Shown: piece by piece, positions 13,167 to 54,033 of the stretch
How positions within the stretch are numbered: the first letter of the stretch is position 1
How the letters are laid out: each line of letters begins with the position of its first letter
From: an uncultured Acidobacteriota bacterium
GTDB taxonomy: Bacteria > Acidobacteriota > Vicinamibacteria > Vicinamibacterales > Fen-181
Length of the DNA stretch: 64,000 nt
Assembly: GCA_963717945.1 (NCBI GenBank)
Contig: CAVQXT010000003.1
Location: forward strand, 385,880-449,879
Direction: 5' to 3'
Made by a program: the position numbers and the translations under genes
Notes under the pieces: model-generated
Database searches by the model: none
Told to the model about the DNA's origin: nothing
What the model saw: the letters and a program-made list of their open reading frames with translations, nothing else

Positions 13167-13225
13167 CGGCGGGACCGGCGCCGGGACCGCGCGGGCGGTT
13201 CACCGAGGCCGGCGTCTTGCGGTGG

Positions 13226-13260: not shown

Positions 13261-13417
13261 CTCTGGTTCGCGCGGAAGTACTCCTCCAGGCAGGCAGCCC
13301 CTTCTCCTGCGGTCGGGACGCTCACCGCGACCTTATAGGCCGGCGGCGTTCCCGCCCTGCCGCCCTGTTCCACCATCGGCATTCAGTGTTCGCGGGCACT
13401 TGCCGGCACTCGGGGTA

Positions 13418-13446
13418 TTGACTAGGTCTAAAGGCGGACTCAATCT
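13418..13446 (+). promoter_or_regulatory. candidate sigma-70-type promoter for katG
   Basis: TTGACT (13418-13423), a 17-nt spacer, then CAATCT (13441-13446). This would give a leader of about 130 nt before the AAGGAGAG Shine-Dalgarno and the ATG at 13582. Confidence 0.3.
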
Positions 13447-13569
13447 ATCTCCATGCCTGCTGGTTCAGCCGACCGCGCCCGTCCGACGCGCCGTTATCGG
13501 AGCCGGAGGAGAGAAGCACGTCGCGAAGTCTTGTTGCCCGCCGTGCCTGGCAATCGCGAAGCAATCTAA

Positions 13570-15756
<2,187 letters not shown>

Positions 15757-15900
15757 TCCTCTCTCCGGGCTGGCGTTCCTGACCGGAAGGGAAGAGGCGC
15801 TCGGGGTTCGCGCCGCCTCGCCTGATGAAGGAAGATCGTCGCGCCCTTCTCGAGCGTCGGTCGCCCGATCGTGCCTCGAATGGTCTAGGATACGGAGCGT

Positions 15901-16485: not shown

Positions 16486-16513
16486 CCCGCCGACAACCCT
16501 GCTGGCGACCAGC

Positions 16514-39548: not shown

Positions 39549-40897
39549 CGCTCCACCGCCGCCATATCGTCGGGAAGGTACGACGCCACGCGCTCGGAGA
39601 CCTCGTGCACCGACAGGTCGCGGCCCTCCTGGATCTCCCAGATCGAGATGATCGGGAAGAACTTGGTCGCCACCATGTAGACCAGGACGAACCCGGCCAG
39701 CGTGCCCGCCATGATCGACAGCTCGACCCACGACGGCATGTAGTGCACCGACGCCGCCTGCAGCCGCGGGTGGAGCGAAGTCGGGACGACGATGTTGAAC
39801 CGCTCCAGCCACATGCCGATGACGACCGCGATCGACGCGACGACGCACCCGGTCACGTTGCGCGTCTTCCGGCGCGCCATCAGCGCGAAGGGGATGAAGA
39901 AACAGCAGGCCACCATCGTCCAGAACGGGATCGCGAACTCCCCGGTCAGCTTGGCGTAGAGCGTGGCCAGCTCCGACGCCTCGCCGCCGTACCAGACGGT
40001 GAGGTGCTCGGCGAAGGTGAAGTAGAACCACAGCACCGTCGTCACCAGCAGCAGCAGCCCCATGTTGTTGAAGTGCACGTCTTTGAAGTACGCCTCGAGG
40101 CGGTAGACGCGCCGCAGGATCGCCATCGCGATGATGAGCGCCGCGATCCCCGAGAAGATGGCGCCGACGACGAAGTAGGGGCCGAAGATCGCGCTGTGCC
40201 ACATCGGCTTCAGCGTCAGCGCGAAGATCCAGCCGATGACGGTGTGGACCGAGACCGCGACCGGGATCACCGCCACGGCGAGAATCCCGATGATCCGCTC
40301 GAGCGTCGCGCGGGCGGCCGGCGTGTCGTGGTAGCCGATCGCGAGGAACGAGTACAGCGCGCGGGGGCGGAGCCCGAGGTCGCGGATGCGCGCGAGGTCC
40401 GGGATCATCGGCACGTACAGGTAGACGGAGCTGGCCGTGAAGTAGAGCGTGATGCTCAGAACGTCCCAGAGGAGGGGCGAGAACGGCTGCGAGTGGAGGA
40501 AGATGTTCAGCACGCGGTCCGGCCGGCCCAGGTCGAGGATCGGCTGCACGGCGCCGAAGCCGATGACGAGCACCGTGATGAACTCGGCCGACCGCGTGAT
40601 CGACCGCCGCCACTCCGCGTTCGCCACGCGGAGGATCGCCGAGATGAGCGTGCCGGCGTGCGAGATGCCGATGAAGAACACGAAGCAGATGATGTAGATG
40701 CCCCAGTACTCGGGCGTGTTCAGGCCGGTCGCGCCCAGGCCGTCGCGCAGCTGGTAGGCGTAGGCGAAGGCGCCCCACAGGGCGACGGCGGCCATCAGCG
40801 CGGCCCAGCGCCAGAACACCTTCGTCGTGCGCACCAGCGGCATGAGCAGCACGCGCTCGTCCTGGGGCAGCTTCGAGACGATTTCAAGATCGGTCAC
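39545..40897 (-). CDS. NrfD/PsrC-family integral membrane quinone-interacting subunit
   Basis: 450 aa with a GTG start and about 10 TM helices. The N-terminal region FWRWAALMAAVALWGAFAYAYQLRDGLGATGLNTPEYWGIYIICFVFFIGISHAGTLISAILR is typical of NrfD/PsrC/ActC. Confidence 0.88.
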   Translation of the reverse strand: MTDLEIVSKLPQDERVLLMPLVRTTKVFWRWAALMAAVALWGAFAYAYQLRDGLGATGLNTPEYWGIYIICFVFFIGISHAGTLISAILRVANAEWRRSITRSAEFITVLVIGFGAVQPILDLGRPDRVLNIFLHSQPFSPLLWDVLSITLYFTASSVYLYVPMIPDLARIRDLGLRPRALYSFLAIGYHDTPAARATLERIIGILAVAVIPVAVSVHTVIGWIFALTLKPMWHSAIFGPYFVVGAIFSGIAALIIAMAILRRVYRLEAYFKDVHFNNMGLLLLVTTVLWFYFTFAEHLTVWYGGEASELATLYAKLTGEFAIPFWTMVACCFFIPFALMARRKTRNVTGCVVASIAVVIGMWLERFNIVVPTSLHPRLQAASVHYMPSWVELSIMAGTLAGFVLVYMVATKFFPIISIWEIQEGRDLSVHEVSERVASYLPDDMAAVER

Positions 40898-40901
40898 AGC
40901 A

Positions 40902-41585
40902 CTATTCCCGTCGTGACAGGTAGTAGACCTTCGGCTCGGTGCCCAGCCCCTCCTGGAGGCGGAAGGCGCGCGGGTCGCGCGCCAGTTCCGCGACCCGGTG
41001 CGCCGGGTCGTCGAGATTGCCGAACACGATCGCCCCGGTCGGGCAGCTGTCGGCGCAGGCGGTCGTGAAGTCCTGCTCGCGCAGCGGGCGTTTCTCGACC
41101 CGCGCGTTCTCCCGCGCCTTCTGCAGCCGGTGGCTGCAGAACGTGCACTTCTCGATGACGCCCACCGGCCGCACCGACACGTCGGGGTTCAGCCCCGGCA
41201 GCGTCGACTCGGGGTGATTCGGCCGGTGCCAGTTGAAGTACTTGACGGTGTACGGGCAGGCGTTGGCGCAGTACCGGCAGCCGATGCACCGGGCGTAGAT
41301 CTGGTTGACGATCCCCTCGCGGTCGATCGACGTCGCCTGCACCGGGCACACCAGCGTGCAGGGCGGCCGGTCGCAGTGCATGCACGGCTGCGGCACGAAC
41401 CGCGTCCTGAGGTCCGGCCACTCGCCCTCGATGTCCACGCGCACCTGCATCCACGAGATCGTGCGGTGCTCGGCGGCGGCCTGCGACCCCCCCACGGCGA
41501 CGTTGTTCTCGGACCGGCAGGCCACCTCGCACGCCTGGCAGCCGTTGCACTTGTCGAGGTCGATGACCATTCCCCAGCGGGCCAT
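40902..41585 (-). CDS. 4Fe-4S ferredoxin-type iron-sulfur subunit (PsrB/NrfC/DmsB-like)
   Basis: MARWGMVIDLDKCNGCQACEVAC..., CMHCDRPPCTLVCP, CIGCRYCANACP, CTFC and CADSCP give four Cys clusters. Confidence 0.92.
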   Translation of the reverse strand: MARWGMVIDLDKCNGCQACEVACRSENNVAVGGSQAAAEHRTISWMQVRVDIEGEWPDLRTRFVPQPCMHCDRPPCTLVCPVQATSIDREGIVNQIYARCIGCRYCANACPYTVKYFNWHRPNHPESTLPGLNPDVSVRPVGVIEKCTFCSHRLQKARENARVEKRPLREQDFTTACADSCPTGAIVFGNLDDPAHRVAELARDPRAFRLQEGLGTEPKVYYLSRRE

Positions 41586-41595: not shown

Positions 41596-43992
41596 TCAGA
41601 GCCGGATCACTCGCACTCGCGTCGACGGCCAGTCCGGCAGGCCGCTCACCGGATCGACCGCCCGGCCCACCGCCGAGAGCGGGTTGGCGCCGTTCGGCTC
41701 GCCCCACCCCTCGTCGTTGCTCGGGGCGCCCTGAGCCTCTGGAAGGGCGACGCGAGAGTGCAGGCCGTACGGCACGCTGACGACGCCCGGCTGCGCGCCG
41801 AGCGTCACCCGGACGGTCGCCTCGAACCGGCCGCGGCTCGATTCGACCCGCACGCGCTGGCCCGACTCCAGCCCCGCACTGCGCGCCGTCTCGGGGCCAA
41901 TCTCGATCCACGTCTCCCACGCGCTGCCGTTGAGCGCGCCGAGGTGCTCGAGCAGCCACGGCATCAGGGGCGTCCCGCCGGACGCGAGCGTCATAACGCG
42001 GAACGGGACCAGCTGCAGGGGAAATTCGCGGAGCCCGTTGTCCTGCGCCTGCGGCGACGCGTCGATCGGGAGGAACCCCTCCGCCAGGGCGCGGCCGGAC
42101 TTCGCCAGGCGCTCCCTGGCCTCGACGGGGAACATCCAGACGCGGCCGTCGGGGAGCTGCGACCGGCCGGCGCCGTCCTCGTAATCGACCAGCGGATCGA
42201 ACCAGCCGCCGGACTCGACGATGGTCTGCCAGAACTCCTCGGGCTTCTGCCCGTGGGGAAGCCACCAGCCGCGCCCCTCGACCTCGCCCAGCTCGCGCTG
42301 CCTGAATCGATCGACGAACGCGCTCCCCCGTCCGGCGCTCGCCAGCGAGAGGCCGCGCTCGTGGACCAGGTCCTCGACCGACTTCCACCGGGCCCACGCC
42401 GCCGCGCTCCCGCCCATCCGCGACGCGAGGCCGAGGATGACGTCGCCGGTGGCGCGCGTGTTCACCAGCGGCTTGACGACGGGACGGACCACGCCCCACA
42501 CCGGCGAGGGCACGGCGGCCGGCGCCACGGCGTCCTGCCAGCGTTCGAGATACGTGTGGTCGGGCAGGATCAGGTGGGCCGATCGCGCGCTCTCGTCGAA
42601 GAAGGGAGAGAACGACACGACCAGCGGCACCCGCGCGAGCGCCTGGCGGGCCGCCTCCGGATCGGGCAGCGAGGCCACCGGGTTCGCGTGGTAGAGGAAC
42701 AGGACCTGCGTCGACCCGGCGGCGTGGCCCTCGCCCGATGGCCAGGTCGTCGCCGTGAGCGGCGCGCTCGCGAGATCGATCTCGCCCGGCGCCCTGCGCT
42801 CGGCCGGGCCCGGCAGCGGCGGCATCGGGCCCTGCACCAGCAGCCCGCCCGGCCGGCCGAGCCGGCCGGTCAGCGTGTTGAGCGCGTGAATGGCCAGCGC
42901 GTCCGACAGGCCCCCGGTGCGCCACGCGACCGCCTGGTCCCACACCGCCACGGCGCGCCGCGCGCCGCCGAACTGCTTGGCGAGCGCGGTGAGCGTCGCC
43001 ACCGGCACGCCCGTGCGCGCCGACACCTCGTCCGGGCGGCCGTGCCTCAAGACCAGCGTCCGGAAGCCGACGTGCGTCACGCCGTCCGCGCCGGTCCAGT
43101 CGTCCCAGCCCGCCACCTGCCGGGCGACCTGGTCGGGGTCGTAGAGCCCTTCCTTGACGATGACGTAGGCAAGGCCCAGCGCGAGCGCGCCGAACGTCCC
43201 CGGCCGGACCGCGACGAACTGGTGCGCGCCGACCGCGGTTCGAGACAGCCGGACATCCACCTGCACCCAGCGCGGCGACCGGCCGGGAGGTTCGGCGTCG
43301 CGGGCGCGCGCGGCCTGGAGCGGCGACCACCAGGCGTCCGACAGCGCCGCGCCGAAGGAGAGCACGAAATCGGCGCCGGCCAGATCGAACGCCGGGGCCG
43401 TCGCGATCCCCTGGCACAGGCGCATGAGGTCGGCGGACCCGTCCCGGTAATCGTCCACCGACACGCGCGTCGTCCCCATGACGCCGCAGAATCCCGCGAG
43501 GAGTTCGCCCATGACGCCGGAGACGTCCCCGACCATCCACTCGACCGGCGTCGCGCCCCCGGGCCGATACGCGGACTCGAGCGCCGACGCGACGCGATCG
43601 AGCGCCGCGTCCCATCCGATCGGCTTGAACTGGTCGGACCCGGGCGGCCCGACGCGCACCAGCGGCCCCTTCAGCCTCGCGGGGTGATAGAGCAGCTGGA
43701 GTCCCGCGCGCCCCTTGGGGCACAGCCCGCCCTGGCTCACCGGGTGGAGCGGGTTGCCGTCGATGCGGACCGGCCGGCCGTCGATGAGGCGGACCCTGAT
43801 CCCGCAGTGCGCGGGGCACAGCAGGCACGTGGAGGCGACAAACGTCTCGTCGTTCGGCGCCCAGTCCGGTCCCACGTGAGGCGAGGCCAGCGGGAACTGA
43901 TGCGAGAGGGCGCCGAGGCCGAAGCCGATGCCGGCACCCGCCGCGCCGACCAGGAAGCTCCGTCGGGAAATGGCCACCTCGCGCCCCCTCAC
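41596..43992 (-). CDS. Tat-exported molybdopterin-oxidoreductase-family catalytic-type subunit (PsrA/ActB1/QrcB-like)
   Basis: The GTG at 43992 overlaps the upstream stop as GTGA. It has a twin-arginine signal (AISRRSFLVGAAGAGIGFG) and an intact FS0 motif CLLCPAHC-x27-C. The rest is MopB-like, with a C-terminal beta-barrel domain (RVRVESSRGRFEATVRVT). An alternative GTG lies at 43977. Confidence 0.88.
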   Translation of the reverse strand: MRGREVAISRRSFLVGAAGAGIGFGLGALSHQFPLASPHVGPDWAPNDETFVASTCLLCPAHCGIRVRLIDGRPVRIDGNPLHPVSQGGLCPKGRAGLQLLYHPARLKGPLVRVGPPGSDQFKPIGWDAALDRVASALESAYRPGGATPVEWMVGDVSGVMGELLAGFCGVMGTTRVSVDDYRDGSADLMRLCQGIATAPAFDLAGADFVLSFGAALSDAWWSPLQAARARDAEPPGRSPRWVQVDVRLSRTAVGAHQFVAVRPGTFGALALGLAYVIVKEGLYDPDQVARQVAGWDDWTGADGVTHVGFRTLVLRHGRPDEVSARTGVPVATLTALAKQFGGARRAVAVWDQAVAWRTGGLSDALAIHALNTLTGRLGRPGGLLVQGPMPPLPGPAERRAPGEIDLASAPLTATTWPSGEGHAAGSTQVLFLYHANPVASLPDPEAARQALARVPLVVSFSPFFDESARSAHLILPDHTYLERWQDAVAPAAVPSPVWGVVRPVVKPLVNTRATGDVILGLASRMGGSAAAWARWKSVEDLVHERGLSLASAGRGSAFVDRFRQRELGEVEGRGWWLPHGQKPEEFWQTIVESGGWFDPLVDYEDGAGRSQLPDGRVWMFPVEARERLAKSGRALAEGFLPIDASPQAQDNGLREFPLQLVPFRVMTLASGGTPLMPWLLEHLGALNGSAWETWIEIGPETARSAGLESGQRVRVESSRGRFEATVRVTLGAQPGVVSVPYGLHSRVALPEAQGAPSNDEGWGEPNGANPLSAVGRAVDPVSGLPDWPSTRVRVIRL

Positions 43993-44525
43993 CTGTGACA
44001 GGCGATGCAGTTGGCCGGCACGTTCCGCCGCTCGTGGCAGTCGGTGCACGTCTTCATGACGATCTGCACCAGCGGCCGCGGCGGCGGGGCCGTCGTGTCG
44101 GCGATGGCGCCGTGGCAGGTCGCGCAGGGCAGGCCGGCCACGGTGACGTGGCGCCGGTGGGAGTAATACACGTGGTCGGGCAGCCGGAACGTCTTCCGGA
44201 ACACCGGCGGCGTCGGGCTCGCGGCGAGCGTGATGAGCTTCCGCTCCTCGGGCGACTTGGTCATCGGCTGCTGGTGACACCCGACGCAGAGCGCGAGGTC
44301 GGGCAGGCCCGAGTGCTGGTGATCGGCGTAGTACTGGTGGCAGGTCGAGCAGTCGAGCCCGGCGTCCTTGACGTGCTTCCGATGGTTGAACTGGATCGGC
44401 TGGACGACGGCGCCGTTCGGGTCGAACGCGGCACGTCCGGCGGCGAAGCCCGCGACCGCCATCAGCACGGTGAACGCGCCGAGGGCGAGCCTCCTGGTTG
44501 GACCGAGCTTCTCATCGACGTTCAC
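43989..44525 (-). CDS. membrane-anchored pentaheme c-type cytochrome (cytochrome c3/c7, ActA/QrcA-like)
   Basis: 178 aa with a GTG start and AGGAG upstream. The N-terminal TM anchor is LALGAFTVLMAVAGFAAG. Five CxxCH motifs are present: CSTCH, CVGCH, CATCH, CTDCH, CIACH. Confidence 0.9.
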   Translation of the reverse strand: MNVDEKLGPTRRLALGAFTVLMAVAGFAAGRAAFDPNGAVVQPIQFNHRKHVKDAGLDCSTCHQYYADHQHSGLPDLALCVGCHQQPMTKSPEERKLITLAASPTPPVFRKTFRLPDHVYYSHRRHVTVAGLPCATCHGAIADTTAPPPRPLVQIVMKTCTDCHERRNVPANCIACHR

Positions 44526-44580
44526 GCTTCGGCTCCTGCACGCTCGCCGCCGCCACGTTGCACGTCCCGCCCGCCGGCGG

Positions 44581-45069
44581 TCAGGCCGATTCGGCCTGGC
44601 TTCCCGGGTCGAGCGTCCGCTGCAGCTCCCGTGCCCAGAGCGCCTGGAACATCGTGAGACGGCTGACCATCAGTTCCGAGATCCCCGTGCGAACCACGCG
44701 CTCGATCACCGGGTCGGCCGCAAAGAGCTTTTCGAGGTCGAGCCGCCCGAACGCCAGGATCTCGGCGGGCGCCGCCGCGCGTGCCGACAGGGTGAAGCGG
44801 AACGGCCGGACGAGCGCAGACCAGCCGACCGTCTTGCCCGGTCCGACCGCTTCGACGGTGATGTCCTTGACGACGCCTCCGACGTTGATCGGCAGGCACA
44901 GGTCCACCAGACCGCGGACGACGAGGCTGATGTACTGCGCGCTGTCGCCGAGCAGGAAGAGGTAGTCGCCGCTCCCGAGCGACCGCTTCCGCGCGATGGC
45001 GTCCAGGCGCATCAGCTTCGCGGCATCGAGACCGTCGAACAGCTCGGCCGCGCGGAGGGACTCCAGCAT
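44581..45069 (-). CDS. stand-alone cyclic-nucleotide-binding (cNMP/Crp-like effector) domain protein
   Basis: 162 aa. ELFDGLDAAKLMRLDAIARKRSLGSGDYLFLLGDSAQYISLVVRGLV...VGWSALV fits the cNMP-binding beta-roll. There is no C-terminal HTH. Confidence 0.8.
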   Translation of the reverse strand: MLESLRAAELFDGLDAAKLMRLDAIARKRSLGSGDYLFLLGDSAQYISLVVRGLVDLCLPINVGGVVKDITVEAVGPGKTVGWSALVRPFRFTLSARAAAPAEILAFGRLDLEKLFAADPVIERVVRTGISELMVSRLTMFQALWARELQRTLDPGSQAESA

Positions 45070-45125
45070 GCGACCTTCCTTGGAAAACCGTTGTAGGGCG
45101 GGTCTTCAGACCCGCCGCCGCGCGC

Positions 45126-45189
45126 CGGCCCTGTCCGCCTTCGCCCGGCTACGGCGGATCCGCCGTAGCGCTTCGCGCGGAGGCGGAAA
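45126..45189 (-). repeat. 64-bp structured intergenic repeat, copy 1 (identical to 54773-54836 in inverted orientation)
   Basis: The reverse complement of 45126-45189 equals 54773-54836 at 64 of 64 positions by my alignment, and similarity extends about 9 nt further. The centre is the perfect 22-bp palindrome GCTACGGCGGATCCGCCGTAGC (45148-45169). Confidence 0.85.
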
Positions 45190-45284
45190 GGGCCGGCCTA
45201 CGTACGAATTCGTACTGGAGACCGACGGCCGCCCAGCCGGCCCCAGAATGGCTGAGCGGCCCAATCGGCCCGGGGGCTCCAGCG

Positions 45285-45626
45285 TCAGTGCGCGTGAAGA
45301 GACGTGCCGACCCGGCGGTAGAGGTTGTCCACCGATGGCTGATGGACGAACTGCGCCACCACCGCCTGCTCGAGCCGGACGTGGTGTTCGAGACGGCTGA
45401 CCATCGCCTCGTTGAAGGCCGAAGCGGCCGGCGTGACCGCCCCGTCGGCGGGCGCGAAGAAACCGGGGACGGCGACGATGGCGGAAGCTCTGGCCGCCGC
45501 GTCTCCCAGCCGGCCCTTGGCCTGCCGCGCGCGTTCGGCCTCGCTGCTCTGATAGCCCATCGCGAGCATCAGGACCATCCCTCCGAACAGGACCGCCACG
45601 ACGACAACGACCAGAGCTGATTCCAT
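45285..45626 (-). CDS. small single-pass membrane protein (113 aa)
   Basis: ATG at 45626 with GGGAGG upstream. MESALVVVVVAVLFGGMVLMLAMGY forms a TM helix and the rest is soluble. It sits directly behind a sigma-54 promoter. Confidence 0.65.
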   Translation of the reverse strand: MESALVVVVVAVLFGGMVLMLAMGYQSSEAERARQAKGRLGDAAARASAIVAVPGFFAPADGAVTPAASAFNEAMVSRLEHHVRLEQAVVAQFVHQPSVDNLYRRVGTSLHAH

Positions 45627-45654
45627 CGTGCGCCTCCCTTCGAGGGACGTCATG

Positions 45655-45669
45655 AGCAAGTCCCGTGCC
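45655..45669 (-). promoter_or_regulatory. sigma-54 (-24/-12) promoter
   Basis: The minus strand reads GGGCACG-GGAC-TTGCT against the consensus TGGCACG-N4-TTGCW, with exact GG/GC spacing. The -12 element lies about 30 nt upstream of the ATG at 45626. Confidence 0.7.
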
Positions 45670-45801
45670 CCGTCGCCGGCCGCGGCGGTCATCCGACGAA
45701 GAGGCGCGAAATGACGGCAGGCAGGGCGCGGAACACGGTGACGGCCGGTCGTGCGGCACGACGGGGGGCTGACGGAACCGACAGGTCGGCCCGCGGCGGG
45801 G

Positions 45802-45817
45802 CTGACAGGAGTGTCAG
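45802..45817. promoter_or_regulatory. candidate enhancer (UAS) palindrome CTGACAG-GA-GTGTCAG
   Basis: TGACA-N4-TGTCA inverted repeat about 135 nt upstream of the sigma-54 promoter at 45669, overlapping the regulator stop codon. A near-identical site lies at 49246-49261. Confidence 0.5.
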
Positions 45818-47223
45818 GATCTCCGGTTCGCCGGGCGATCGGCGGCCGGGCGGCGCGCCGGGGCTCCCCCGCGTTGACGCTCGAGCAGCCGGTAGAAGGT
45901 CCGCTCCGACATGCCGAGCGCGTGAGCGGCCTTCGCCCGGTTCCCGCCCACCTTGGTGAGCACCCACTGGATGTGGCGGCGCTGCATCTCGCGCAGCGAC
46001 GGGATCTCCTCCCCGTCGGGCCGCGCGAGCGTCGGGCCCTCGGGCCGCAGGCTCACCGGCAGGTCCTCGACGTGGATGACGTCGCCGTCGCAGAGCACCA
46101 CGCTCTGCTCGATCACGTGGATCAGCTCGCGCACGTTGCCCGGCCAGCCGTGCCGCTGCAGCAACTCGAGCGCGTCGTCGCCCACCCGCTTGGCGCAGGA
46201 GAAGCGGCGGTTGAACCGCGCGATGAAGTGATCGACCAGGCAGGGGATGTCCTCGGGCCGGGTCCTGAGCGGCGGGATGGTCAGCGTGAAGGTGGCCAGC
46301 CGGTAATAGAGATCCTCGCGGAAATGACCGCGGGCGGTCGCCTGCGTGAGGTCCCGGTTGGTGGCCGCCACGACGCGCACGTCGACGGCGATCTCGCGCG
46401 TGCCGCCGAGGCGGCGGAAGCGGCCCGTCTCGAGCACGCGGAGCAGCTTGGCCTGGGCCTCGGGGCTGGTGTCGCCCACCTCGTCGAGGAAGATCGTCCC
46501 GCCGCTGGCCACCTCGAACAGCCCGTGCTTCAGGCGATCGGCGCCGGTGAACGCCCCCTTCTCGTGGCCGAAGACCTCGGTCTGGAACAGCTCGTCGTGG
46601 AGCGCCGCGCAGTTGACCGCGACAAACGGCGCCTCGCGCCGCCCGCTCTGCGTGTGGAGCAGCGTGGCGACCAGCTCCTTGCCGACGCCGGTTTCGCCCA
46701 GGATGAGCGTGGTCGAATCGGTGCGGGCGATCCGTTCGACCGCGTCGAGCAGCTTGCGGTTGGCGGCGCTCGCGCCGACGAACTCGACGCCGCGGTCGGG
46801 CACGGCGTACCCGTCTTCGAGCACGCGCTGCCGGGTGAGGAGCCGCACGTGCTCGTGCGTCTTCTGGATCGTCATCTCCAGCTTGGCGATCGGGCACGGC
46901 TTCTCGAGGTAGTCGTGGGCGCCGACGCGGATCGCCCGGACCGCCGTGTCGATCGTCCCGTGGCCGGTCAGGACGACGATGCCCGCCGCGACCGACCGGC
47001 GGCGCAGCTCCTCGAGCACGTCGAGGCCGTCCATGTCGGGCAGGCGCAGGTCGAGGAGGATCACGTCCACGTCCGCGCTCGCGGCCGGGTCGAGCGCCTC
47101 CTGGCCGGACGCGCGCGTCTCGACGGCGTAGCCCCGGCGCGCCAGCTCCGCGCCCATGACGCGCCGGAACGCGGCGTCGTCGTCGACGAGCAGCACGCGG
47201 ATCGCGGTGTCGGGACTGGTCAC
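45814..47223 (-). CDS. sigma-54-dependent response regulator (receiver-AAA+-Fis HTH, NtrC family)
   Basis: The GTG at 47223 overlaps the kinase stop as GTGA.
- **Receiver:** RVLLVDDD...DLRLPDMDG.
- **Walker A:** GETGVGKE.
- **GAFTGA loop:** EKGAFTGA.
- **Other AAA+ motifs:** FLDEVG and GNVRELIH.
- **C-terminal HTH:** GNRAKAAHALGMSERTFYRLL. Confidence 0.93.
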   Translation of the reverse strand: MTSPDTAIRVLLVDDDAAFRRVMGAELARRGYAVETRASGQEALDPAASADVDVILLDLRLPDMDGLDVLEELRRRSVAAGIVVLTGHGTIDTAVRAIRVGAHDYLEKPCPIAKLEMTIQKTHEHVRLLTRQRVLEDGYAVPDRGVEFVGASAANRKLLDAVERIARTDSTTLILGETGVGKELVATLLHTQSGRREAPFVAVNCAALHDELFQTEVFGHEKGAFTGADRLKHGLFEVASGGTIFLDEVGDTSPEAQAKLLRVLETGRFRRLGGTREIAVDVRVVAATNRDLTQATARGHFREDLYYRLATFTLTIPPLRTRPEDIPCLVDHFIARFNRRFSCAKRVGDDALELLQRHGWPGNVRELIHVIEQSVVLCDGDVIHVEDLPVSLRPEGPTLARPDGEEIPSLREMQRRHIQWVLTKVGGNRAKAAHALGMSERTFYRLLERQRGGAPARRPAADRPANRRS

Positions 47224-49115
47224 AAGGCCTCCGCGCCCGAGAGGGGGAAGACGACCTCGATGCACGAGCCGCGCCCGACGGCGCTCTCGACCAGCCGGAC
47301 GTCGCCGCCGAAGCGGCGCATGAACCGGCGCGAGAGGAAGAGGCCGAGGCCGGTGCCGTCCGGCTTCTCGGTCCGGAACGGCTCGAACAGGTGTCGCTGG
47401 GCCTCCGGCGGAATGCCGCAGCCGTTGTCGCGCACCTGCAGGCGCACCTGCTCGCCGACGTCGACGCGCACGGCCACCCGCCCGCCGCGCCCGCCGCACG
47501 ACTCGATGGCGTTGACGAGCAGGTTCAGCACCACGTGCTGCACGACCTCGGTGTTGGCCGAGACGATGGGGATCGGGCCGCTCCGGTCGCGGACCAGCTC
47601 GACCTCCGCCGCGCGCGCGGCCGGGGCGGCGAGCGAGAGGACGCCGTCGACGACTTCGCCGAGATCGATCGGCTCGGTGGCCGGCGGGATGCCGCGGGCG
47701 AAACGCAGGAACTGCCGGGTGATCGTGCGGCACCGCATCACCTGGTCGCGAATCACCGAGGCGCTGTCGCGGATCGCCTCGAGCGTGGCGGCGTCGGGCG
47801 GGCCGTCGGCCGGGCCCGGGAGCTGGTCGAGGATCCCCTCGGCGCAGGTGAGCGTCGTGGCGAGCGGCGTGTTGACCTCGTGCGACAGGCCGGACGCCAG
47901 GATGCCCAGCGAGGACAGGCGCTCGAACTCGGCGAGATGCTCCTCACCCCGGACGCGATCGGTGATGTCGCGCCACGCCTCGACCACCTGCCCGACCGAC
48001 CCGTCCTCGGCGTAGACCGGAGACGCGTAGATCTCGTAGATGCGCTCGTCGCCGCCGTCGGACGCGGGCATGCGGTAGGTGGCCTGCGCGAGGCGCCCCG
48101 TGGACAGGCACCGCGCCGTCGGGCACTCGGGGTCGTCGCCGCAGGGCAGGACGTGGCCCGTCACGCGGCGGCACTCCTGCCCGCGCAGCGCGTCGGGATG
48201 CGCGCCGAGCCACGTGGCGATCGACCGGTTGGCCGCGACCACCTTGAAGTCCCGCCCGAGCACGATCAGGCCGTCGTCGAGGCCGTTGAGGACGCCGGAG
48301 AGCTGCTGCTCCCGGCGCTTGATCTCCTCGACCAGGCGCGAGGTCGCGTCGGCCATGGCGTTGAAGTCGGTGGCCAGCGACGCGATCGCGTCGCCGCCCG
48401 AGGTGTCGGCCCGCTCCTCGAGCGCGCCGCCGGCGATGGCGCGCGCGGTCCGCGTGAGCGCCGAGAGCCGCGAGAGGACGACCCGGCGCAGATGCCACCC
48501 CAGGCCGCCGAGCATGACCAGCGCCACGATGCCCGACCCGGCGCCGAGGCGCCAGGCGTCGCTGCGGAACTGCGCCTGCACCTGCGAGAGCGACACGTCG
48601 AGCACCATCATGCCGTTCCAGCGCGTGGCGGGGTCGTGGCAGCGGTGGCATTCCGGGCGGTTCTCGATCGGCAGCACGGTCCTGAGGACGCCGACGCCGT
48701 TCTCCTGGAAGGTGACCCAGCGCTTGCGGTCGGCCGGGCTCTCCGCGTGGCAGACCAGGCAGGTGGGCGACGACCTCGACGTGCGGACACCGACCTCGGC
48801 CGGCCGGCTCGACAGCTTGATGATCCCGTCGTGGTCGACGATCATCGCGCGCAGGACCTCGGGCTCGTGGCCGACGTCCCGGAGAATCCCGCCGATGAGC
48901 CCGGTGTCCCGCGCCAGCATGTCGTGCCGGAGGGCGGTCTCGAGGAGGCGGTTCTCGAGCTCGGCGGCGCCGCGGCGCGCGGCCACGGCGTGGTCGTACT
49001 GAAGGGCAGAGAGCAGGTAGAGGCCGCCGGCCAGCGGACCGAGCAGGAGCAGGCTCACCCCCAGCGCAATCCGGGCCGTGAGCCGCTCGACGTGGGGGAC
49101 TCGCAGGCGTCTCAT
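47220..49115 (-). CDS. sensor histidine kinase: periplasmic di-CxxCH domain, HAMP, Cys-rich PAS, HisKA, HATPase
   Basis: 631 aa.
- **Membrane topology:** two TM helices flank a periplasmic domain of about 160 aa.
- **Periplasmic domain:** contains CLVCH and CHRCH.
- **HAMP:** AIASLATDFNAMAD.
- **PAS:** carries ECRRVTGHVLPCGDDPECPTARC.
- **H-box:** SGLSHEVNTPL.
- **N/G boxes:** NLLVNAIES, DNGCGI, GTGLGL. Confidence 0.92.
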   Translation of the reverse strand: MRRLRVPHVERLTARIALGVSLLLLGPLAGGLYLLSALQYDHAVAARRGAAELENRLLETALRHDMLARDTGLIGGILRDVGHEPEVLRAMIVDHDGIIKLSSRPAEVGVRTSRSSPTCLVCHAESPADRKRWVTFQENGVGVLRTVLPIENRPECHRCHDPATRWNGMMVLDVSLSQVQAQFRSDAWRLGAGSGIVALVMLGGLGWHLRRVVLSRLSALTRTARAIAGGALEERADTSGGDAIASLATDFNAMADATSRLVEEIKRREQQLSGVLNGLDDGLIVLGRDFKVVAANRSIATWLGAHPDALRGQECRRVTGHVLPCGDDPECPTARCLSTGRLAQATYRMPASDGGDERIYEIYASPVYAEDGSVGQVVEAWRDITDRVRGEEHLAEFERLSSLGILASGLSHEVNTPLATTLTCAEGILDQLPGPADGPPDAATLEAIRDSASVIRDQVMRCRTITRQFLRFARGIPPATEPIDLGEVVDGVLSLAAPAARAAEVELVRDRSGPIPIVSANTEVVQHVVLNLLVNAIESCGGRGGRVAVRVDVGEQVRLQVRDNGCGIPPEAQRHLFEPFRTEKPDGTGLGLFLSRRFMRRFGGDVRLVESAVGRGSCIEVVFPLSGAEAL

Positions 49116-49245
49116 CGACCCCGGCCGCCTCCTGCGCCCGCGCAGATGTCAGTGTTGAGCCAAAACCAGTCTAGCAGGATCGCCGCAAATGGCCGCCGGC
49201 GAGGCCCCTCGACCCCGGCGAAGCCCGTCAATGGCGACCCTTGGA

Positions 49246-49294
49246 CTGACAGTTGTGTCATGTCGCGACAACGGTTACTCTGTCATCCATGACA
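49246..49294. promoter_or_regulatory. cluster of three overlapping or adjacent palindromes (candidate enhancer sites) upstream of the decaheme operon
   Basis: - CTGACAG-TT-GTGTCAT at 49246-49261.
- TGTCATGTCGCGACA at 49256-49270.
- TGTCA-TCCA-TGACA at 49281-49294.
- They lie 134-182 nt upstream of the sigma-54 promoter at 49428. Confidence 0.5.
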
Positions 49295-49427
49295 TGCCGG
49301 CGGCAGGCCCGGCTCGTCTTGTCATCGGGCTTCACCCGCGCCCGGGCGTGCGAACCCGTTGACCATCCTTCGCAAATCACACCTTTTCATGCAGCGCCCG
49401 TGCCCGGTCGTCCGGGGCAGCCCGCGA

Positions 49428-49442
49428 GGAACGGGGATTGCT
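49428..49442 (+). promoter_or_regulatory. sigma-54 (-24/-12) promoter
   Basis: AGGAACG-GGGA-TTGCT against the consensus TGGCACG-N4-TTGCW, with correct GG/GC spacing. It ends 73 nt upstream of the ATG at 49515. Confidence 0.65.
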
Positions 49443-49514
49443 CGAACGGCAGACCGGGCCCTCACCGGCCCCGAGGCCTGACGCGTCTCGCGCGGCCTGA
49501 ACCCGGAGAACGAC

Positions 49515-50492
49515 ATGGTGCGCTTGTCCCGGTTGGGAAGCCTGTCGGCATTCATGCTCATGTGGGCCGCCGCGGCCGCCGCGCAGCAGGGCGGGGCGGT
49601 CAAGGCCGCCCTGGCGGCTGACGAGGTCTGCACCGCGTGCCACAACGAGACGTGGGCGAAGCCGATCCTCGCGATCTACCAGACGCCACACGGCAACAGG
49701 GCCGACCCGCGAACGCCGGGCTGTCGGACCTGTCACGGCCCGAGCGAGGGCCACCTGAGCGACTTCAACACGTCACCCGACGTCGTGTTCGGCGCGGCGT
49801 CGAAGCGGCTGTCGCCGGCCGCCAAGCGCAACGCCTCGTGCCTCGCGTGCCACGACTCGAAGGTGCTGGCGCGGACCAACTGGATCGGCAGCCAGCACGA
49901 GAGCCATGGCGTGGCCTGCACCAGCTGCCACAACATCCACGCGCCCGATCAGAAAGTCCTCGTCAGGGCCACACAGGCGGAGGTCTGCTACGCCTGTCAC
50001 AAGGCCCAGCGCGCGCAGGTCCGCCGCATCTCGGCCCACCCGCTCGCGGTGACCGGCATCGGCAGCCCGCCGAAGATGGTCTGCTCGGACTGCCACAACC
50101 CTCACGGCTCGACCGGCCCCCAGCTTCTCGTCAAGAACACGGTGAACGAGACCTGCTACACGTGCCACGCCGAGAAGCGCGGCCCGTTCCTCTGGGAGCA
50201 CAGCCCGGTCGTGGACAGCTGCGTGAACTGCCACACGCCGCACGGCTCGACCAACGCGGCGCTGCTGAAGGTGCGCGCGCCCTTCCTGTGCCAGGAGTGT
50301 CACAGCGGGGATCACGCCGCGCAGATCAACAGCGGCGCCAACCTCGGCACCGGGGCCGTGACCACGGTCAACGGCGTGCAGCAGCCGGCCGCCGCCGCGC
50401 CGCGGGCGCAGCTCGCCGCCCGCGCCTGCCTGAACTGCCACGTGCTCATTCACGGGTCGAATCACCCGGCGGGGGCCAAGTTCCAGCGCTGA
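49515..50492 (+). CDS. periplasmic decaheme c-type cytochrome, MtrA/DmsE/MtoA/PioA family
   Basis: 325 aa with a signal peptide. Exactly ten CxxCH motifs are present: CTACH, CRTCH, CLACH, CTSCH, CYACH, CSDCH, CYTCH, CVNCH, CQECH, CLNCH. Both the spacing and the size are typical of MtrA-type cytochromes. Confidence 0.9.
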   Translation: MVRLSRLGSLSAFMLMWAAAAAAQQGGAVKAALAADEVCTACHNETWAKPILAIYQTPHGNRADPRTPGCRTCHGPSEGHLSDFNTSPDVVFGAASKRLSPAAKRNASCLACHDSKVLARTNWIGSQHESHGVACTSCHNIHAPDQKVLVRATQAEVCYACHKAQRAQVRRISAHPLAVTGIGSPPKMVCSDCHNPHGSTGPQLLVKNTVNETCYTCHAEKRGPFLWEHSPVVDSCVNCHTPHGSTNAALLKVRAPFLCQECHSGDHAAQINSGANLGTGAVTTVNGVQQPAAAAPRAQLAARACLNCHVLIHGSNHPAGAKFQR

Positions 50493-50496: not shown

Positions 50497-53238
50497 ATGG
50501 AACCTGGAACGACGAGTATGACCATCAACGCGAACACAATCGGTGCGCGGATCCAGACGATGGCCGCGCGATGGCTGCTTGCCGCGGCGATGATTGTCGC
50601 GGCCGCCGGCCAGGCTGCCGCGCAGGGCGCGGCCCCGCCCGCCGCGCAGGCGGCGAGCCAGCCTGCCGCGCCGAGCGCGAGCGACCTCACCAGGCCCGCC
50701 AGCACCGTGGAGGTCGGCGCGGGAGGCGTGAGCGACGGGTCCTACAAGGCGGGCGAGTACAACGGCCTGCAGAAGCAGGGCGGCTTCTTCATCGGCGATT
50801 TCGACATTCGCGGCGGAGGGGCCTACGACAGCGGCGACGCCACGCGGTACCGCGTCAAGGGCACCGACCTCGGCCTCTCGACGCGCAGCTTCAGCGCGGA
50901 CTACGGCGTGCAGGGCTCCTTCCGCCTGACGTTCGGCTTCAGCGAACTGCGCGCGAACCGGTCCGACAGCTACCAGACGCCCTACAACGGCGCCGGCACC
51001 GACGCGCTGACGCTGCCGGCGACCTGGCTGGTCCCCACGGTGGCGGGGTCCTCCTCCTCCAACAACGCCGTCAACACCACGAGCGCGAGAGGCCTCGTCC
51101 CGTCGATCGCCCTCGCGCCGTACATCGACACCCAGGCCGGGTCACCGACGATCGGCACGCTCATCACGCCCAACGCGACCCAGACCTCGCTCGTCAACGC
51201 CGCGGTCGCGGCCGACCTGCCGCTGTTCCACGGGTTCGGGGTGTACACCACCCGCAAACGCTTCGACGCGGGCTTCAGCCTCAACGTCGGCACCGAGTGG
51301 ACGATCGACGCGACGTTCACGCCCGAGCGCAAGAGCGGGACGAAACTGATGGGGACGGTGTCTCGAACGACGGGCGGCGACATCTCCACCGTGATCCCCG
51401 ACAGGATCGACAGCGGCACCGACCAGATCGGCCTGAACGTCACCTACAGGCACGGGAAGGGCGTCTTCCAGGGCGGCTACTACGGCTCGTTCTTCACCAA
51501 CAACGTCCCCTTCATGTCGTGGCAGAACTGGGCGACGTCGGCGTTCACGACCAACACGATGAGCAGCGCGCCGAGCAACAGCTTCAACCAGATCAACGGG
51601 TCCGCCGCGTACGCCCTCACGCGCACGACGAAGCTGACGGCCTTCGGCGCCTACGGCCGCAATACGCAGGACGACAAGTTCCTCACCGACGCCAGCACGC
51701 CGGTCGTCCCGGTCAACTCGCTCAACGGCCTCGTCGTCAGCTCCGCGTTCAACGTGAAGCTCACCAGCCGGCCCGCCAGGAAGCTGAACCTGACGGCGGC
51801 CTACAAGTTCGACAATCGCGACAACCGCACGGCGATCAACATCTTCCAGTATGCGGACGCCAGCGAGTCGGCTTCGGTGAACGCCAACTTCCCGGCCGGC
51901 CCGACCAACCCGCTCGGCGCGGTCCTCGCCCAGAACGCCAACGCCAATCGGCCCTACAGCAGGAGGCTGAACCAGTTCTCGGGTGAAGCCGACTACGCCC
52001 TGGCGCCCGGGCAGCACGTCACGGCCGGCTACCAGTTCCAGCGGGTCAGCCGCGACTGCCCCGGCTCGTGGATTTCCTGCGCGGATGCCGGGACCACCAA
52101 CGAGCACACCCTCCGCGCCGAGTGGCGGGCCACCGCCGGATCCGCCTGGACCGGCAGGCTCGCCTATGAGTACTCGCAGCGCCGGTCGCCGGACTACAAC
52201 GAGGACGCGTTCCTCGCGCTGGTTCCCTACGCGAGCGTGATCCCGGCCGGGCAGACGATGTCGGCCGTGGAGGCGCTGAACACGTACGGGCTGACCGGCT
52301 ACGGTCCGGTGCAGGGTTACAACGGCGGCGTGTTCGTGAACGGCACCTTCTTCCCGAACAACAACGCCCTCTCGAACAGCCTCTACGCGAACAACAACCG
52401 GATCAGCGAGCTCATCGGCATGCGGCGGTACTACGTCTCCGACCGGAACCGCAACAAGCTGCGCGCCGCGGTCACCTGGATGGCGACCGACGCGTTCACG
52501 CTCCAGGCGGGGCTCGACTACAACAAGGACTCCTACCCGGGCGCGACGTACGGCCTGCAGCGGTCCGACACCTGGGCGGCCAACGTGGACGGGTCGTACG
52601 CGCTCGGCGACAAGGTCAGCGTGGACGTGTACTACACGCTCGAGGCGCTCGGCAACGGCACCGCCGGGAACAGCTACACGGCCAACAGCAACACGGCCGG
52701 CGTCAACGGCTTCACGGCGCTGTCGGGCAACGCGTGCGACGGCTACACGACGCTGCAACAGCGCAACAACAACAACAAGCTCGACCCCTGCCTGAACTGG
52801 TTCACCGACATGGCCGACCGCGTGCACACCGTGGGCGTCGGGCTGAGGGGGAGAATCCAGAAGCTGGACGTGACGGCCAACGTCATGACGAGCCGGGCCA
52901 GCAGCACCAACAACGTCAGCGGCGGGAACTGGGCGAACAACCCGCTGGCGCTCGCCGGCGCGCCCGCCGGGACGGTTGCCGCCTTCTTCATCCCCGCGGC
53001 GGCGATGCCCGCCGTGACCGCGCACGTGTCGGAGATTCGCGTGAACGCGACCTACCCGGTCGCCAAGGGGCAGTCGCTCCGCCTGCTGTATTCCTACATG
53101 CGCACCAACTCGGCGGACTGGCTCTACGAGGGGACGGAGATGGGGCTGGGGACGCCGAGCGGCGTGCTGCCGACAAACGAGCAGCCGTTCGACTTCGCCG
53201 TGCACGTCTTCGCGGTGTCGTACATCGTGCGCTTCTAA
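50497..53238 (+). CDS. MtrB/PioB-family outer-membrane beta-barrel (decaheme-associated porin)
   Basis: Starts 4 nt after the decaheme gene. It has a signal-like MAARWLLAAAMIVAAAGQAAAQ and the N-terminal GVSDGSYKAGEYNGLQKQGGFFIGDFDIRGGG signature. The body is rich in alternating beta-strands with Tyr/Asn/Gly, and the terminal sequence is ...FAVSYIVRF with a C-terminal Phe. The start is uncertain (50497, 50518 or 50560). Confidence 0.8.
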   Translation: MEPGTTSMTINANTIGARIQTMAARWLLAAAMIVAAAGQAAAQGAAPPAAQAASQPAAPSASDLTRPASTVEVGAGGVSDGSYKAGEYNGLQKQGGFFIGDFDIRGGGAYDSGDATRYRVKGTDLGLSTRSFSADYGVQGSFRLTFGFSELRANRSDSYQTPYNGAGTDALTLPATWLVPTVAGSSSSNNAVNTTSARGLVPSIALAPYIDTQAGSPTIGTLITPNATQTSLVNAAVAADLPLFHGFGVYTTRKRFDAGFSLNVGTEWTIDATFTPERKSGTKLMGTVSRTTGGDISTVIPDRIDSGTDQIGLNVTYRHGKGVFQGGYYGSFFTNNVPFMSWQNWATSAFTTNTMSSAPSNSFNQINGSAAYALTRTTKLTAFGAYGRNTQDDKFLTDASTPVVPVNSLNGLVVSSAFNVKLTSRPARKLNLTAAYKFDNRDNRTAINIFQYADASESASVNANFPAGPTNPLGAVLAQNANANRPYSRRLNQFSGEADYALAPGQHVTAGYQFQRVSRDCPGSWISCADAGTTNEHTLRAEWRATAGSAWTGRLAYEYSQRRSPDYNEDAFLALVPYASVIPAGQTMSAVEALNTYGLTGYGPVQGYNGGVFVNGTFFPNNNALSNSLYANNNRISELIGMRRYYVSDRNRNKLRAAVTWMATDAFTLQAGLDYNKDSYPGATYGLQRSDTWAANVDGSYALGDKVSVDVYYTLEALGNGTAGNSYTANSNTAGVNGFTALSGNACDGYTTLQQRNNNNKLDPCLNWFTDMADRVHTVGVGLRGRIQKLDVTANVMTSRASSTNNVSGGNWANNPLALAGAPAGTVAAFFIPAAAMPAVTAHVSEIRVNATYPVAKGQSLRLLYSYMRTNSADWLYEGTEMGLGTPSGVLPTNEQPFDFAVHVFAVSYIVRF

Positions 53239-53313: not shown

Positions 53314-53364
53314 TGAGCCCTGAGCCCTGAGCCGCCCTGGCCAGAGCCTCGAGCCTCGGGCCTA
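53314..53364. repeat. heptamer arrays (TGAGCCC x2, TGAGCCG ... GAGCCTC x2, GGGCCTA)
   Basis: Read directly. The arrays lie between convergent genes and run into the cytochrome c stop codon. Confidence 0.8.
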
Positions 53365-53703
53365 CTTCGCCGCCTTGAGCGTCTGCAGGTAGGCCACCAC
53401 CGCGTCGATGTCGCCCGGCTGCCACGCCACCTTCGGCATCTTGATCTTCTCGTTGGGGAATTCCTTCAGGGGGTCGGCCAGGATCGACTTGATCTTGGCG
53501 GCGTCGAGGCGGTCGGTGACGCCGTCGAGCGGCTTGCCGATCTTGCCGCCCTTGCCCGCGACAAGGTGACACATCGAGCAGTGGTTCTTGACCGCCAGTT
53601 CCTGGCCCTTGGCCACGGCCTTGGCGTCCTGGGCTGCCGCGTAGCCGGACAGCGCCACGGTACACACGACGGCGAGAAGCGTGAAGGAAGTACGTTGTGC
53701 CAT
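53362..53703 (-). CDS. monoheme class I c-type cytochrome, periplasmic
   Basis: 113 aa. Signal peptide MAQRTSFTLLAVVCTVALSGYAAA, a single CSMCH, and a distal Met candidate in KIKMPK. Confidence 0.9.
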   Translation of the reverse strand: MAQRTSFTLLAVVCTVALSGYAAAQDAKAVAKGQELAVKNHCSMCHLVAGKGGKIGKPLDGVTDRLDAAKIKSILADPLKEFPNEKIKMPKVAWQPGDIDAVVAYLQTLKAAK

Positions 53704-53822
53704 CGGCTCATCCTGTTGAGGTCGGACCCGGGCGGTCGCGCGTCACGAGCGGGGCCGCGCCCTGGTCCGGTGGTGCCGGCCCCGATGGCATGACTGCAAA
53801 TCCCGGGCCGGTGCCGGCTTCC

Positions 53823-53949
53823 GGCTCCAGGCTTCAGGCTCTCGGCCTTGCCGCACGAGCCCTCGCATCTGAAGGGCAGGGGTTCCAGCATTTCCGGCAG
53901 TGTGACACCCGTGACGCCGCCGAAAGTCGAGAGCCGAAAGCCGAGAGCC
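53823..53949. repeat. two complementary heptamer arrays (GGCTCCA GGCTTCA GGCTCTC GGCCTTG ... GAGAGCC GAAAGCC GAGAGCC)
   Basis: The arrays lie at 53823-53850 and 53929-53949. GGCTCTCGGC (53837-53846) is perfectly complementary to GCCGAGAGCC (53940-53949). They sit in the divergent region between the cytochrome c gene and aqpZ. Confidence 0.7.
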
Positions 53950-54033
53950 TCGTGTGGCGGAACTGATTGACGTGTGGCCAAAAGGTCGCCAGAATCCCCG
54001 CGTCGGGTCCTAGCGACCACAAAGGAGGATGTC

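Follow-up and report, generated by a model that had tools for sequence, protein, structure and literature searches.

An NtrC-type two-component system as the likely sigma-54-dependent regulator of an extracellular electron-transfer locus in an uncultured Vicinamibacterales bacterium

The stretch of 64 kb analyzed here (in the following called the window; GC content 70%) comes from an uncultured bacterium of the order Vicinamibacterales. It contains the gene of a sensor histidine kinase (47220-49115, minus strand) and, directly behind it, the gene of an NtrC-family response regulator, a sigma-54 enhancer-binding protein (EBP; 45814-47223, minus strand). Our analysis makes it very probable that these two proteins form an NtrC-type two-component system which controls an extracellular electron-transfer pathway via sigma-54. 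A preliminary description of the same DNA had already proposed that the pair drives sigma-54 promoters on both flanks of the locus. The comparative evidence, namely the conservation of the elements and the exclusive occurrence of tandem dyads beside this regulator, lends support to this proposal. However, its presentation as "direct sequence evidence" was an overstatement.

Two sigma-54-type -24/-12 promoters carry the argument. The first one, P1 (AGGAACGGGGATTGCT, 49427-49442, plus strand), lies 72 nt 5' of the ATG of an mtrA-like gene and agrees with the sigma-54 consensus TGGCACG-N4-TTGCW at 10 of the 12 specified positions. The second one, P2 (GGGCACGGGACTTGCT, 45655-45670, minus strand), ends 28 nt before the ATG of a gene for a small membrane protein and agrees at 11 of 12. 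Both promoters possess the exact GG-N10-GC geometry, and inspection of the sequence returned them and their upstream dyads just as they had been described. The earlier picture of two promoters facing outward from the kinase/regulator pair needs a correction: P2 lies downstream of the regulator gene and is co-directional with it.

Each promoter is preceded by a pair of 16-bp dyads with the consensus CTGWCA-N4-TGWCAG, the members of a pair being 33-34 bp apart. Upstream of P1, the distal dyad (CTGACAGTTGTGTCAT, 49246-49261) is the top match to the upstream activating sequence (UAS) in the window with 22.4 bits, and the proximal dyad (CTGTCATCCATGACAT, 49280-49295; 12.8 bits) follows at 34 bp centre to centre. 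Upstream of P2, the distal dyad A (CTGACAGGAGTGTCAG, 45802-45817; 19.9 bits) overlaps the TGA stop codon of the regulator gene (45814-45816), and the proximal dyad B (CTGACGGAACCGACAG on the plus strand, CTGTCGGTTCCGTCAG on the gene strand; 45769-45784) reaches 19.9 bits as well. The distal 16-mers of both promoters are indeed identical at 13 of 16 positions, and the distances given earlier for the dyads (134-182 nt to P1 and 133-148 nt to P2) are correct. Two further palindromes had been assigned to the P1 region up to position 49294. One of them is the proximal dyad, which is conserved, whereas the other one, TGTCGCGACA at 49261-49270, shows no conservation among the orthologs. For P2 only dyad A had been noticed; dyad B was overlooked, and each enhancer consists of a pair.

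For the comparative analysis we assembled L001, a close syntenic Vicinamibacterales metagenome-assembled genome (MAG) found in a genome scan with the regulator as query, 14 further loci from a metagenome scan with the small protein as query, and the loci L095-L100, which were taken from the genomic context of decaheme cytochrome homologs. Among them, 13 close loci including the window could be used for P2, together with the short contig L085, and 8 loci with divergent mtrAB genes for P1.

P2 is kept in all 13 close loci and also in L085. In the 13 loci it always exhibits the GG-N10-GC geometry and an invariant TTGCT and ends 25-29 nt before the ATG of the small gene; an apparent distance of 1 nt in L095 is an artefact of a longer upstream gene call. 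The spacing of dyads A and B is 33 bp in 12 of the 13 loci and 32 bp in L001, while the distance from enhancer to promoter varies between 73 and 289 bp, with the proximal dyad 73-256 bp from the -12 element. P1 is kept as GGAAC-N5-TTGCT in 8 of 8 loci, its end being 72-95 nt away from the ATG in 7 of them. The distal P1 dyad is preserved in L081-L083 and L095-L099, and in 8 loci the P1 dyads are spaced by 33-34 bp, with their centres 115-298 bp upstream of the -12 element. Enhancers behave in this way: the two sites keep their mutual spacing, whereas their distance to the promoter varies. The position of dyad A at the end of the regulator gene does not explain its conservation: the dyad is kept in 13 loci, and in L086 and L087, where the regulator stop codon is located further upstream, it is wholly non-coding, so coding constraint cannot account for it. 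In L085 (a 1.2-kb contig; positions 1-498), P2 and dyad B are retained, but unrelated coding sequence stands upstream in place of dyad A and the regulator gene, an arrangement that represents either a genuine rearrangement or an assembly chimera.

The specificity of these elements had to be judged against the high GC content. Matches to the loose consensus TGGCACG-N4-TTGCW with at most two mismatches are not enriched (10 in the window versus 8.8 expected). Therefore, a loose match alone is no evidence, and GG-N10-GC alone is looser still. We dropped the counting of generic consensus matches, which is uninformative in DNA of 70% GC, and used ortholog-derived position matrices in its place. These matrices comprised only orthologous sites from other genomes; the sites of the window itself were left out. 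They rank P1 (23.1 bits) and P2 (21.5 bits) first and second of approximately 128,000 positions, the next one having 13.0 bits, and according to exact tail probabilities the number of matches expected per window from background is 0.0008 for P1, 0.003 for P2 and at most 0.018 for the three strong dyads.

The top three UAS matches in the window are the dyads at 49246, 45802 and 45769. Exact copies of TGWCA-N4-TGWCA occur three times in the 64 kb, all of them at the regulatory sites of P1 and P2, and 6 of the 41 TGWCA pentamers in the window are crowded between 49141 and 49340 (Poisson P ~5e-9). UAS matches inside mtrA (49721, 50288 and 50426) were set aside, as they correspond to TGTCAC or TGCCAC, the Cys-His codons of CXXCH motifs. 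If tandem dyads are defined as two dyads of at least 12 bits each, 32-35 bp apart, the window contains exactly two of them. Every close syntenic locus but L085 has one or two, always upstream of P1 or P2, whereas 1.29 Mb of unrelated loci, each encoding another EBP, have none.

The regulator itself has the equipment for such a role. Its start codon overlaps the stop codon of the kinase gene (GTGA), and Pfam assigns to it the domains Response_reg (1e-28), Sigma54_activat (5e-66), AAA_lid_14 and HTH_8, that is, a REC-AAA+-HTH architecture. The phospho-acceptor D58, the Walker A motif GETGVGK, the Walker B motif FLDEVG and the GAFTGA loop, already recognized in the preliminary description, are all present, as expected of an EBP. 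The best NCBIfam models of the regulator all stay below their equivalog cutoffs (AtoC 403 versus 714, NtrC 381 versus 558.6 and ZraR 364 versus 760), the FlbD model is a weaker match with 273 bits, and the nearest solved structures are those of NtrC4 and NtrC1 from Aquifex, followed by LuxO and ZraR. The protein belongs to the EBP class but, judged by these scores, is the ortholog of no named regulator. The best NCBIfam model of the kinase, AtoS, likewise stays below its cutoff (180 versus 646 bits).

According to Pfam, the kinase is composed of a transmembrane helix, a periplasmic domain, a second transmembrane helix and HAMP, PAS, HisKA and HATPase domains. Its periplasmic loop contains two heme-c motifs of the type CXXCH (residues 119 and 156). 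A structural match of this domain was obtained with PDB entry 3B47 (E = 9.5e-5) and a weak one with 3B42 (E = 0.053), both deposited as methyl-accepting chemotaxis proteins, which we take to be the heme-c PAS sensor domains from Geobacter. Because of the heme motifs and these two matches, the input signal of the kinase is most likely the periplasmic redox state or a ligand of the heme. The cytoplasmic PAS domain additionally contains a cluster of four cysteines (CRRVTGHVLPCGDDPECPTARC, residues ~323-344), which could bind a metal or an Fe-S centre.

Next to P1 and P2, which were the only promoters considered before, the locus possesses a third conserved sigma-54-like element and a conserved -10-like box. 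The third element, P3 (GGGCACGGGCGCTGCA, 49390-49405, minus strand), faces the kinase gene 21 bp behind P1 and matches the consensus as well as P1 does (10 of 12 specified positions). In 6 of 8 loci it is separated from P1 by 20-23 bp; the distance grows to 97 bp in L097, and in L098 the element is displaced. In a MAFFT alignment of the block between P3 and P1, the only conserved islands are TGCA-N6-CGTGCCCGG, which represents the -12 and -24 elements of P3 on the other strand, and GGAAC-N5-TTGCTC of P1, so that in this block nothing but the -24 and -12 positions of the two promoters has been conserved.

The -10-like box (CCTGCTAGACTG, TG-n-TAGACT, of the extended -10 type; 49167-49178, minus strand) is located about 50 nt 5' of the kinase ATG. 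It is kept, exactly or with one to two changes, in the window, L081-L084, L086, L087 and L096-L099. A simple sigma-70 scan does not call the box, because there is no -35 match; it is probably the basal sigma-70-type promoter of the kinase/regulator operon. P3, in turn, is probably an autoregulatory promoter of the same operon, with its enhancer located downstream. Since transcription from P3 would cross the P1 enhancer on its way to the kinase gene, positive autoregulation is the simplest reading.

It is also conceivable that P3 is unproductive, being a docking site for the sigma-54 holoenzyme or an architectural element that modulates P1, and that the kinase and regulator genes are transcribed from the sigma-70-like box only. 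The presence of this separate conserved box for the kinase would fit such a role, as would the location of the P1 enhancer downstream of the predicted P3 start and the fixed gap of 20-23 bp to P1, which suggests a structural constraint. Moreover, non-productive and intragenic sigma-54 sites are described as widespread in E. coli (PMC4591121). However, both the -24 (GGGCAYG) and the -12 element ([C/G]TGCA) of P3 are conserved with exact spacing and in an orientation into the kinase gene. Autoregulated sigma-54 two-component operons such as zraSR and downstream enhancers such as the ftr sites of Caulobacter flaN/flbG are known, too. An unproductive P3 therefore appears unlikely to us, although it keeps a chance that should be taken seriously.

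A different objection concerns the factor that recognizes the dyads. P1 and P2 could be genuine sigma-54 promoters, the dyads of which are bound by another protein, for example a member of the CRP/FNR family, while the adjacent regulator binds elsewhere or acts from solution. This explanation draws on the cNMP-binding protein encoded in the P2 operon and on the FNR-type boxes, which have the same 5-4-5 spacing of half-sites as TGWCA-N4-TGWCA. However, the cNMP-binding protein (44581-45069, minus strand; Pfam and NCBIfam) has no DNA-binding domain. Dyad A abuts the stop codon of the regulator gene wherever this gene lies upstream, which is the case in all close loci but L085, and dyad pairs 33 bp apart at a distance of 73-298 bp from the promoter fit an enhancer and not the site of a class I or class II activator.

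The locus L100 (contig_24457, 3.07 Mb; 6794-7001) is of special value in this regard. Its mtrAB genes are 71% identical to those of the window and have OmpR-type two-component systems as well as a gene of the Crp family as neighbors, yet the region upstream of mtrAB contains neither dyads nor a sigma-54 element (best score 3.7 bits), and this regulator is not encoded beside it. In L100, the same conduit has thus been rewired to a different regulation. Taken together, recognition of the dyads by a factor other than the adjacent regulator is improbable and has only a slim chance.

Finally, the elements might be chance matches in GC-rich DNA, where the generic consensus is not enriched and GG-N10-GC is common, or they might be conserved merely through close kinship of the loci, but this is effectively refuted by the very low expected counts per window, by the lack of tandem dyads in the control loci and by the fact that most of the intergenic sequence around P1 and P2 can no longer be aligned, in contrast to the invariant -24, -12 and dyad positions, in loci whose regulators and small proteins are only 67-84% and 50-61% identical to those of the window.

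If the adjacent regulator is the protein that binds the dyads, the circuit would work as follows. A low level of kinase and regulator would be supplied from the extended -10-like box at 49167-49178. The kinase would read the periplasmic redox state or a heme ligand and phosphorylate Asp58 of the regulator, the dimers of which would then bind the dyad pairs in front of P1 (49246-49295) and P2 (45769-45817), the members of a pair being separated by 33-34 bp, which corresponds to about three helical turns. The paired dyads would nucleate the AAA+ ring of the regulator. This ring would contact, by DNA looping, the sigma-54 holoenzyme waiting in the closed complex at P1 or P2, and ATP together with the GAFTGA loop would open the promoter. 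P1 would thereby deliver the MtrA/MtrB-like porin-cytochrome of the outer membrane, and P2 the small membrane protein, the cNMP-binding protein, a Qrc-like quinone-interacting complex and a tetraheme cytochrome, so that the outer- and the inner-membrane half of the conduit would be switched on together. P3, back to back with P1 and reading through the P1 enhancer into the kinase gene, would probably close a loop of positive autoregulation.

The genes downstream of P1 encode a DmsE/MtrA-family decaheme cytochrome (49515-50492, plus strand; Pfam) and an MtrB/PioB outer-membrane barrel (50497-53238, plus strand). Both exceed the cutoffs of their families (TIGR03508: 274.7 bits, cutoff 192.2; TIGR03509: 327.8 bits, cutoff 240.05), and the barrel matches PF11854 at 2e-114. 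A DmsE-family decaheme cytochrome beside an MtrB/PioB barrel is the combination that marks a porin-cytochrome conduit. There is no MtrC-like gene among the genes of the locus examined here, although a specific search for MtrC was not made.

The P2 unit begins with a gene for a membrane protein of 113 amino acids (45285-45626, minus strand), which possesses one N-terminal transmembrane helix and a conserved C-terminal motif LE(H/Q)HVR(L/A)EQA(V/A)..F (LEHHVRLEQA..F in the window) and matches no Pfam or NCBIfam family. Its homologs in L001 and L081-L099 are always encoded by the first gene after a sigma-54 element and are followed by a stand-alone cNMP-binding protein. Next to the cNMP-binding protein, all on the minus strand and assigned by Pfam and NCBIfam, come a QrcA-like multiheme cytochrome (43989-44525; also by heme count), a QrcB-like subunit of the molybdopterin family (41596-43977), a QrcC-like FeS subunit (40902-41585) and an NrfD/QrcD-like membrane subunit (39545-40897). 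The last gene encodes a tetraheme cytochrome c (38391 to ~39540, minus strand; judged by gene start and heme count). All Qrc equivalog scores remain below the cutoffs (QrcA 88 versus 180, QrcB 288 versus 440, QrcC 302 versus 400 and QrcD 45 versus 570). The complex shares the architecture of four subunits and the gene order with Qrc, but it is no Qrc ortholog and is therefore called Qrc-like only.

These seven genes (small protein, cNMP-binding protein, QrcA/B/C/D-like subunits and tetraheme cytochrome) constitute the presumed P2 operon. We infer that they are co-transcribed, because their order is the same wherever the genes are present in the syntenic loci, most loci have short gaps of 30-110 nt, and the terminator prediction for 44400-45700 gave no candidate between the genes. 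In the window, the small gene and the cNMP gene are separated by 215 nt, and L095, its closest relative, has a gap of similar length (~205-215 nt for the two), compared with 30-110 nt for the majority of the orthologs. Within this gap (45095-45285) the window contains a hairpin rich in GC (GGCGGGTCTGAAGACCCGCC, ~45100-45125), the core of which, GGGTCTT.AGACCC, together with TGTAGG, is also found in L095 at an unrelated position, and which looks like a repetitive extragenic palindrome (REP)-like mobile element. A function of this hairpin as a terminator that isolates the small gene was rejected, as the terminator scan is negative and a T-run is missing. A perfect palindrome of 14 bp (GTACGAATTCGTAC, 45202-45215) is located in the same gap. 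Another sigma-54-like sequence (GGGCACGGGAGCTGCA, 44621-44636, minus strand; 10 of 12 consensus positions) is located inside the 3' end of the cNMP-binding gene. We discarded it as an internal promoter for the qrc-like genes, since it overlaps the codons of a conserved W-A-R-E-L-Q stretch and degenerates in L086, L087 and L098; the site is probably driven by coding and no promoter.

On the other side of the locus, a monoheme cytochrome c gene (53362-53703, minus strand) adjoins mtrB in every close locus. Upstream of it there is a sigma-54-like element of lower confidence, P4 (CGGCCCGGGATTTGCA, 53795-53810, minus strand), which was found in 5 of the 6 loci examined (present in L095, L096, L098 and L099, not in L097). 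No TGWCA dyad exists near P4, only one TGWCA half-site. We therefore did not count P4 in the regulon, as the promoter-like element is conserved but no dyad accompanies it. The leader of about 100 nt is highly conserved among the window, L095 and L096. Upstream of P4, at 53830-53960, the long imperfect inverted repeats GGCTCTCGGCTTTCGGCTCTCGACTTTCGGC and GCCGAGAGCCTGAAGCCTGGAGCCGGAAGCC flank approximately 70 nt; they are not found in the orthologs and may represent an inserted element.

Other loci show gene arrangements that differ from that of the window. In L001, the NrfD-like gene is immediately followed, on its own strand, by a gene for a cytochrome c and by a pair of divergent MtrA/MtrB-like genes (12833-16542), whose products are 39% and 24% identical to those of the window; this places mtrAB-like genes at the distal end of the qrc-like operon. 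L001 has a single enhancer/promoter set, and nothing like P1 is present upstream of its kinase gene. This indicates the same gene sets under the same control in another layout. More distant homologs of the small gene (~30-35% identity, L088-L094) also have GG-N10-GC promoters upstream, for example TGGCACGCCGGCTGCA or TGGCACGAGACCTGCT. Further upstream there are TGACAG/TGTCAG dyads, which are mostly 15 bp (CTGACAG-N-CTGTCAG, perfect in L090) and not 16 bp long, and in some of these loci the kinase or the regulator gene is divergent from the small gene. It appears that the half-site spacing shifted by 1 bp as the regulator diverged.

Several observations speak against the control of the locus by this regulator and sigma-54 as proposed here. 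The assignment of the dyads to the regulator derives from co-occurrence only, and the proximal P1 dyad of the window is weak with 12.8 bits. No rpoN was found in the window or in the Vicinamibacterales loci examined, and a scan for the RpoN box in the window and 100 loci yielded only an unrelated Ardenticatenaceae gene; the presence of rpoN in the genome is assumed from the EBP with its intact GAFTGA loop. The enhancer of P3 lies 3' of its predicted start, which is unusual, and P3 is not in its regular place in L098. In the window, the gap of 215 nt with its hairpin makes read-through into the qrc-like genes less certain than in the orthologs. The sole transcript evidence is a contig of 474 nt from a wetland metatranscriptome (~88% identical, depth 13), which spans 49245-49605 and thus the enhancer, P3, P1 and the start of mtrA. 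As it covers both sides of P1 and provides no 5' ends, it is uninformative, and it could be due to DNA carry-over or to transcriptional read-through in a relative. No RNA run with a nearly identical sequence was found, and word sharing with the region was limited to two metatranscriptomes, at 4%.

Beyond the window, one could assume that soil Vicinamibacterales possess a conserved master switch made up of a kinase that senses redox state by periplasmic heme c and its sigma-54 activator, and that more distant versions of it exist in other lineages known from metagenomes. This switch would co-induce the whole route, consisting of the MtrAB conduit, the Qrc-like module and soluble cytochromes, by a layout of three promoters in which P1 and P3 share one enhancer, and it would be, as far as the searched literature shows, the first described sigma-54 regulator of a conduit of the Mtr/Mto/Pio type. 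We advance this wider proposal tentatively and see for it somewhat less than an even chance.

Conduits of the MtrAB/PioAB/MtoAB type drive the microbial redox cycling of iron and manganese. Those of the abundant soil Acidobacteriota are, to our knowledge, known mainly from gene surveys, and we know of no information on when they are expressed. The circuit, if true, would for the first time, as far as the searched literature goes, make the regulation of metal redox metabolism accessible in this soil group, which is abundant and largely uncultured. It offers a tool for regulon prediction in MAGs, namely a search for tandem CTGWCA-N4-TGWCAG dyads followed by GG-N10-GC, and it links the Qrc-like complex, the small membrane protein and the cNMP-binding protein to the outer-membrane conduit in what is apparently one co-regulated pathway. 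It could also be rebuilt in E. coli in order to find the inducing signal without culturing the organism, and the P1/P3 pair with its one-sided enhancer represents a compact natural test case for the geometry between enhancers and sigma-54 promoters.

In the literature searched, we found no paper that links sigma-54 to mtr, mto or pio genes or to Vicinamibacteria, and a survey of the distribution of Mtr systems does not discuss regulators of this kind (PMC8805035). The nearest functional parallel comes from Geobacter, where components of extracellular electron transfer are regulated with the participation of sigma-54 and EBPs (PMC2725144). However, Geobacter belongs to another phylum and employs a Pcc/Omc conduit instead of one of the MtrAB/DmsE type, and the sensor domain found here forms part of a histidine kinase rather than of a chemoreceptor.

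With regard to architecture, the closest counterpart of the P2 arrangement is AtoS/AtoC of E. coli, where the genes of kinase and regulator lie upstream of and co-directional with the sigma-54 target atoDAEB, which is preceded by paired inverted repeats approximately 100-150 bp upstream. AtoC and AtoS are also the top NCBIfam models for the regulator and the kinase, but with scores far below the cutoffs, and the system of the window differs in its site sequence, its periplasmic diheme sensor, its respiratory targets in place of acetoacetate catabolism and its second, divergent operon. The paired dyads recall NtrB/NtrC at glnAp2, where two dyad sites about three helical turns (~32 bp) apart upstream of GG-N10-GC promote the oligomerization of a REC-AAA+-HTH(Fis) protein, and the nearest solved structures likewise belong to the NtrC family. 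However, the regulator is no NtrC ortholog, its dyad is unrelated to the NtrC site and there are no genes for nitrogen assimilation in the locus.

The P1/P3 pair, on the other hand, resembles ZraS/ZraR-zraP of E. coli, which has divergent sigma-54 promoters for the target and for autoregulation with shared activator sites between them. In the locus described here, by contrast, the two promoters stand back to back at a distance of 20-23 bp, the enhancer is situated on one side and downstream of P3, and the ZraR score falls short of the cutoff. A precedent for the activation of P3 from a downstream enhancer is provided by the FlbD-dependent ftr sites of Caulobacter (flaN/flbG), where divergent sigma-54 promoters are combined with enhancers downstream of a start site, although this is a flagellar regulon with another site sequence and another layout. 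Overall, the architecture of the circuit is that of the textbook NtrC class, and what is new are the regulon, the type of sensor and the unusual back-to-back promoter pair.

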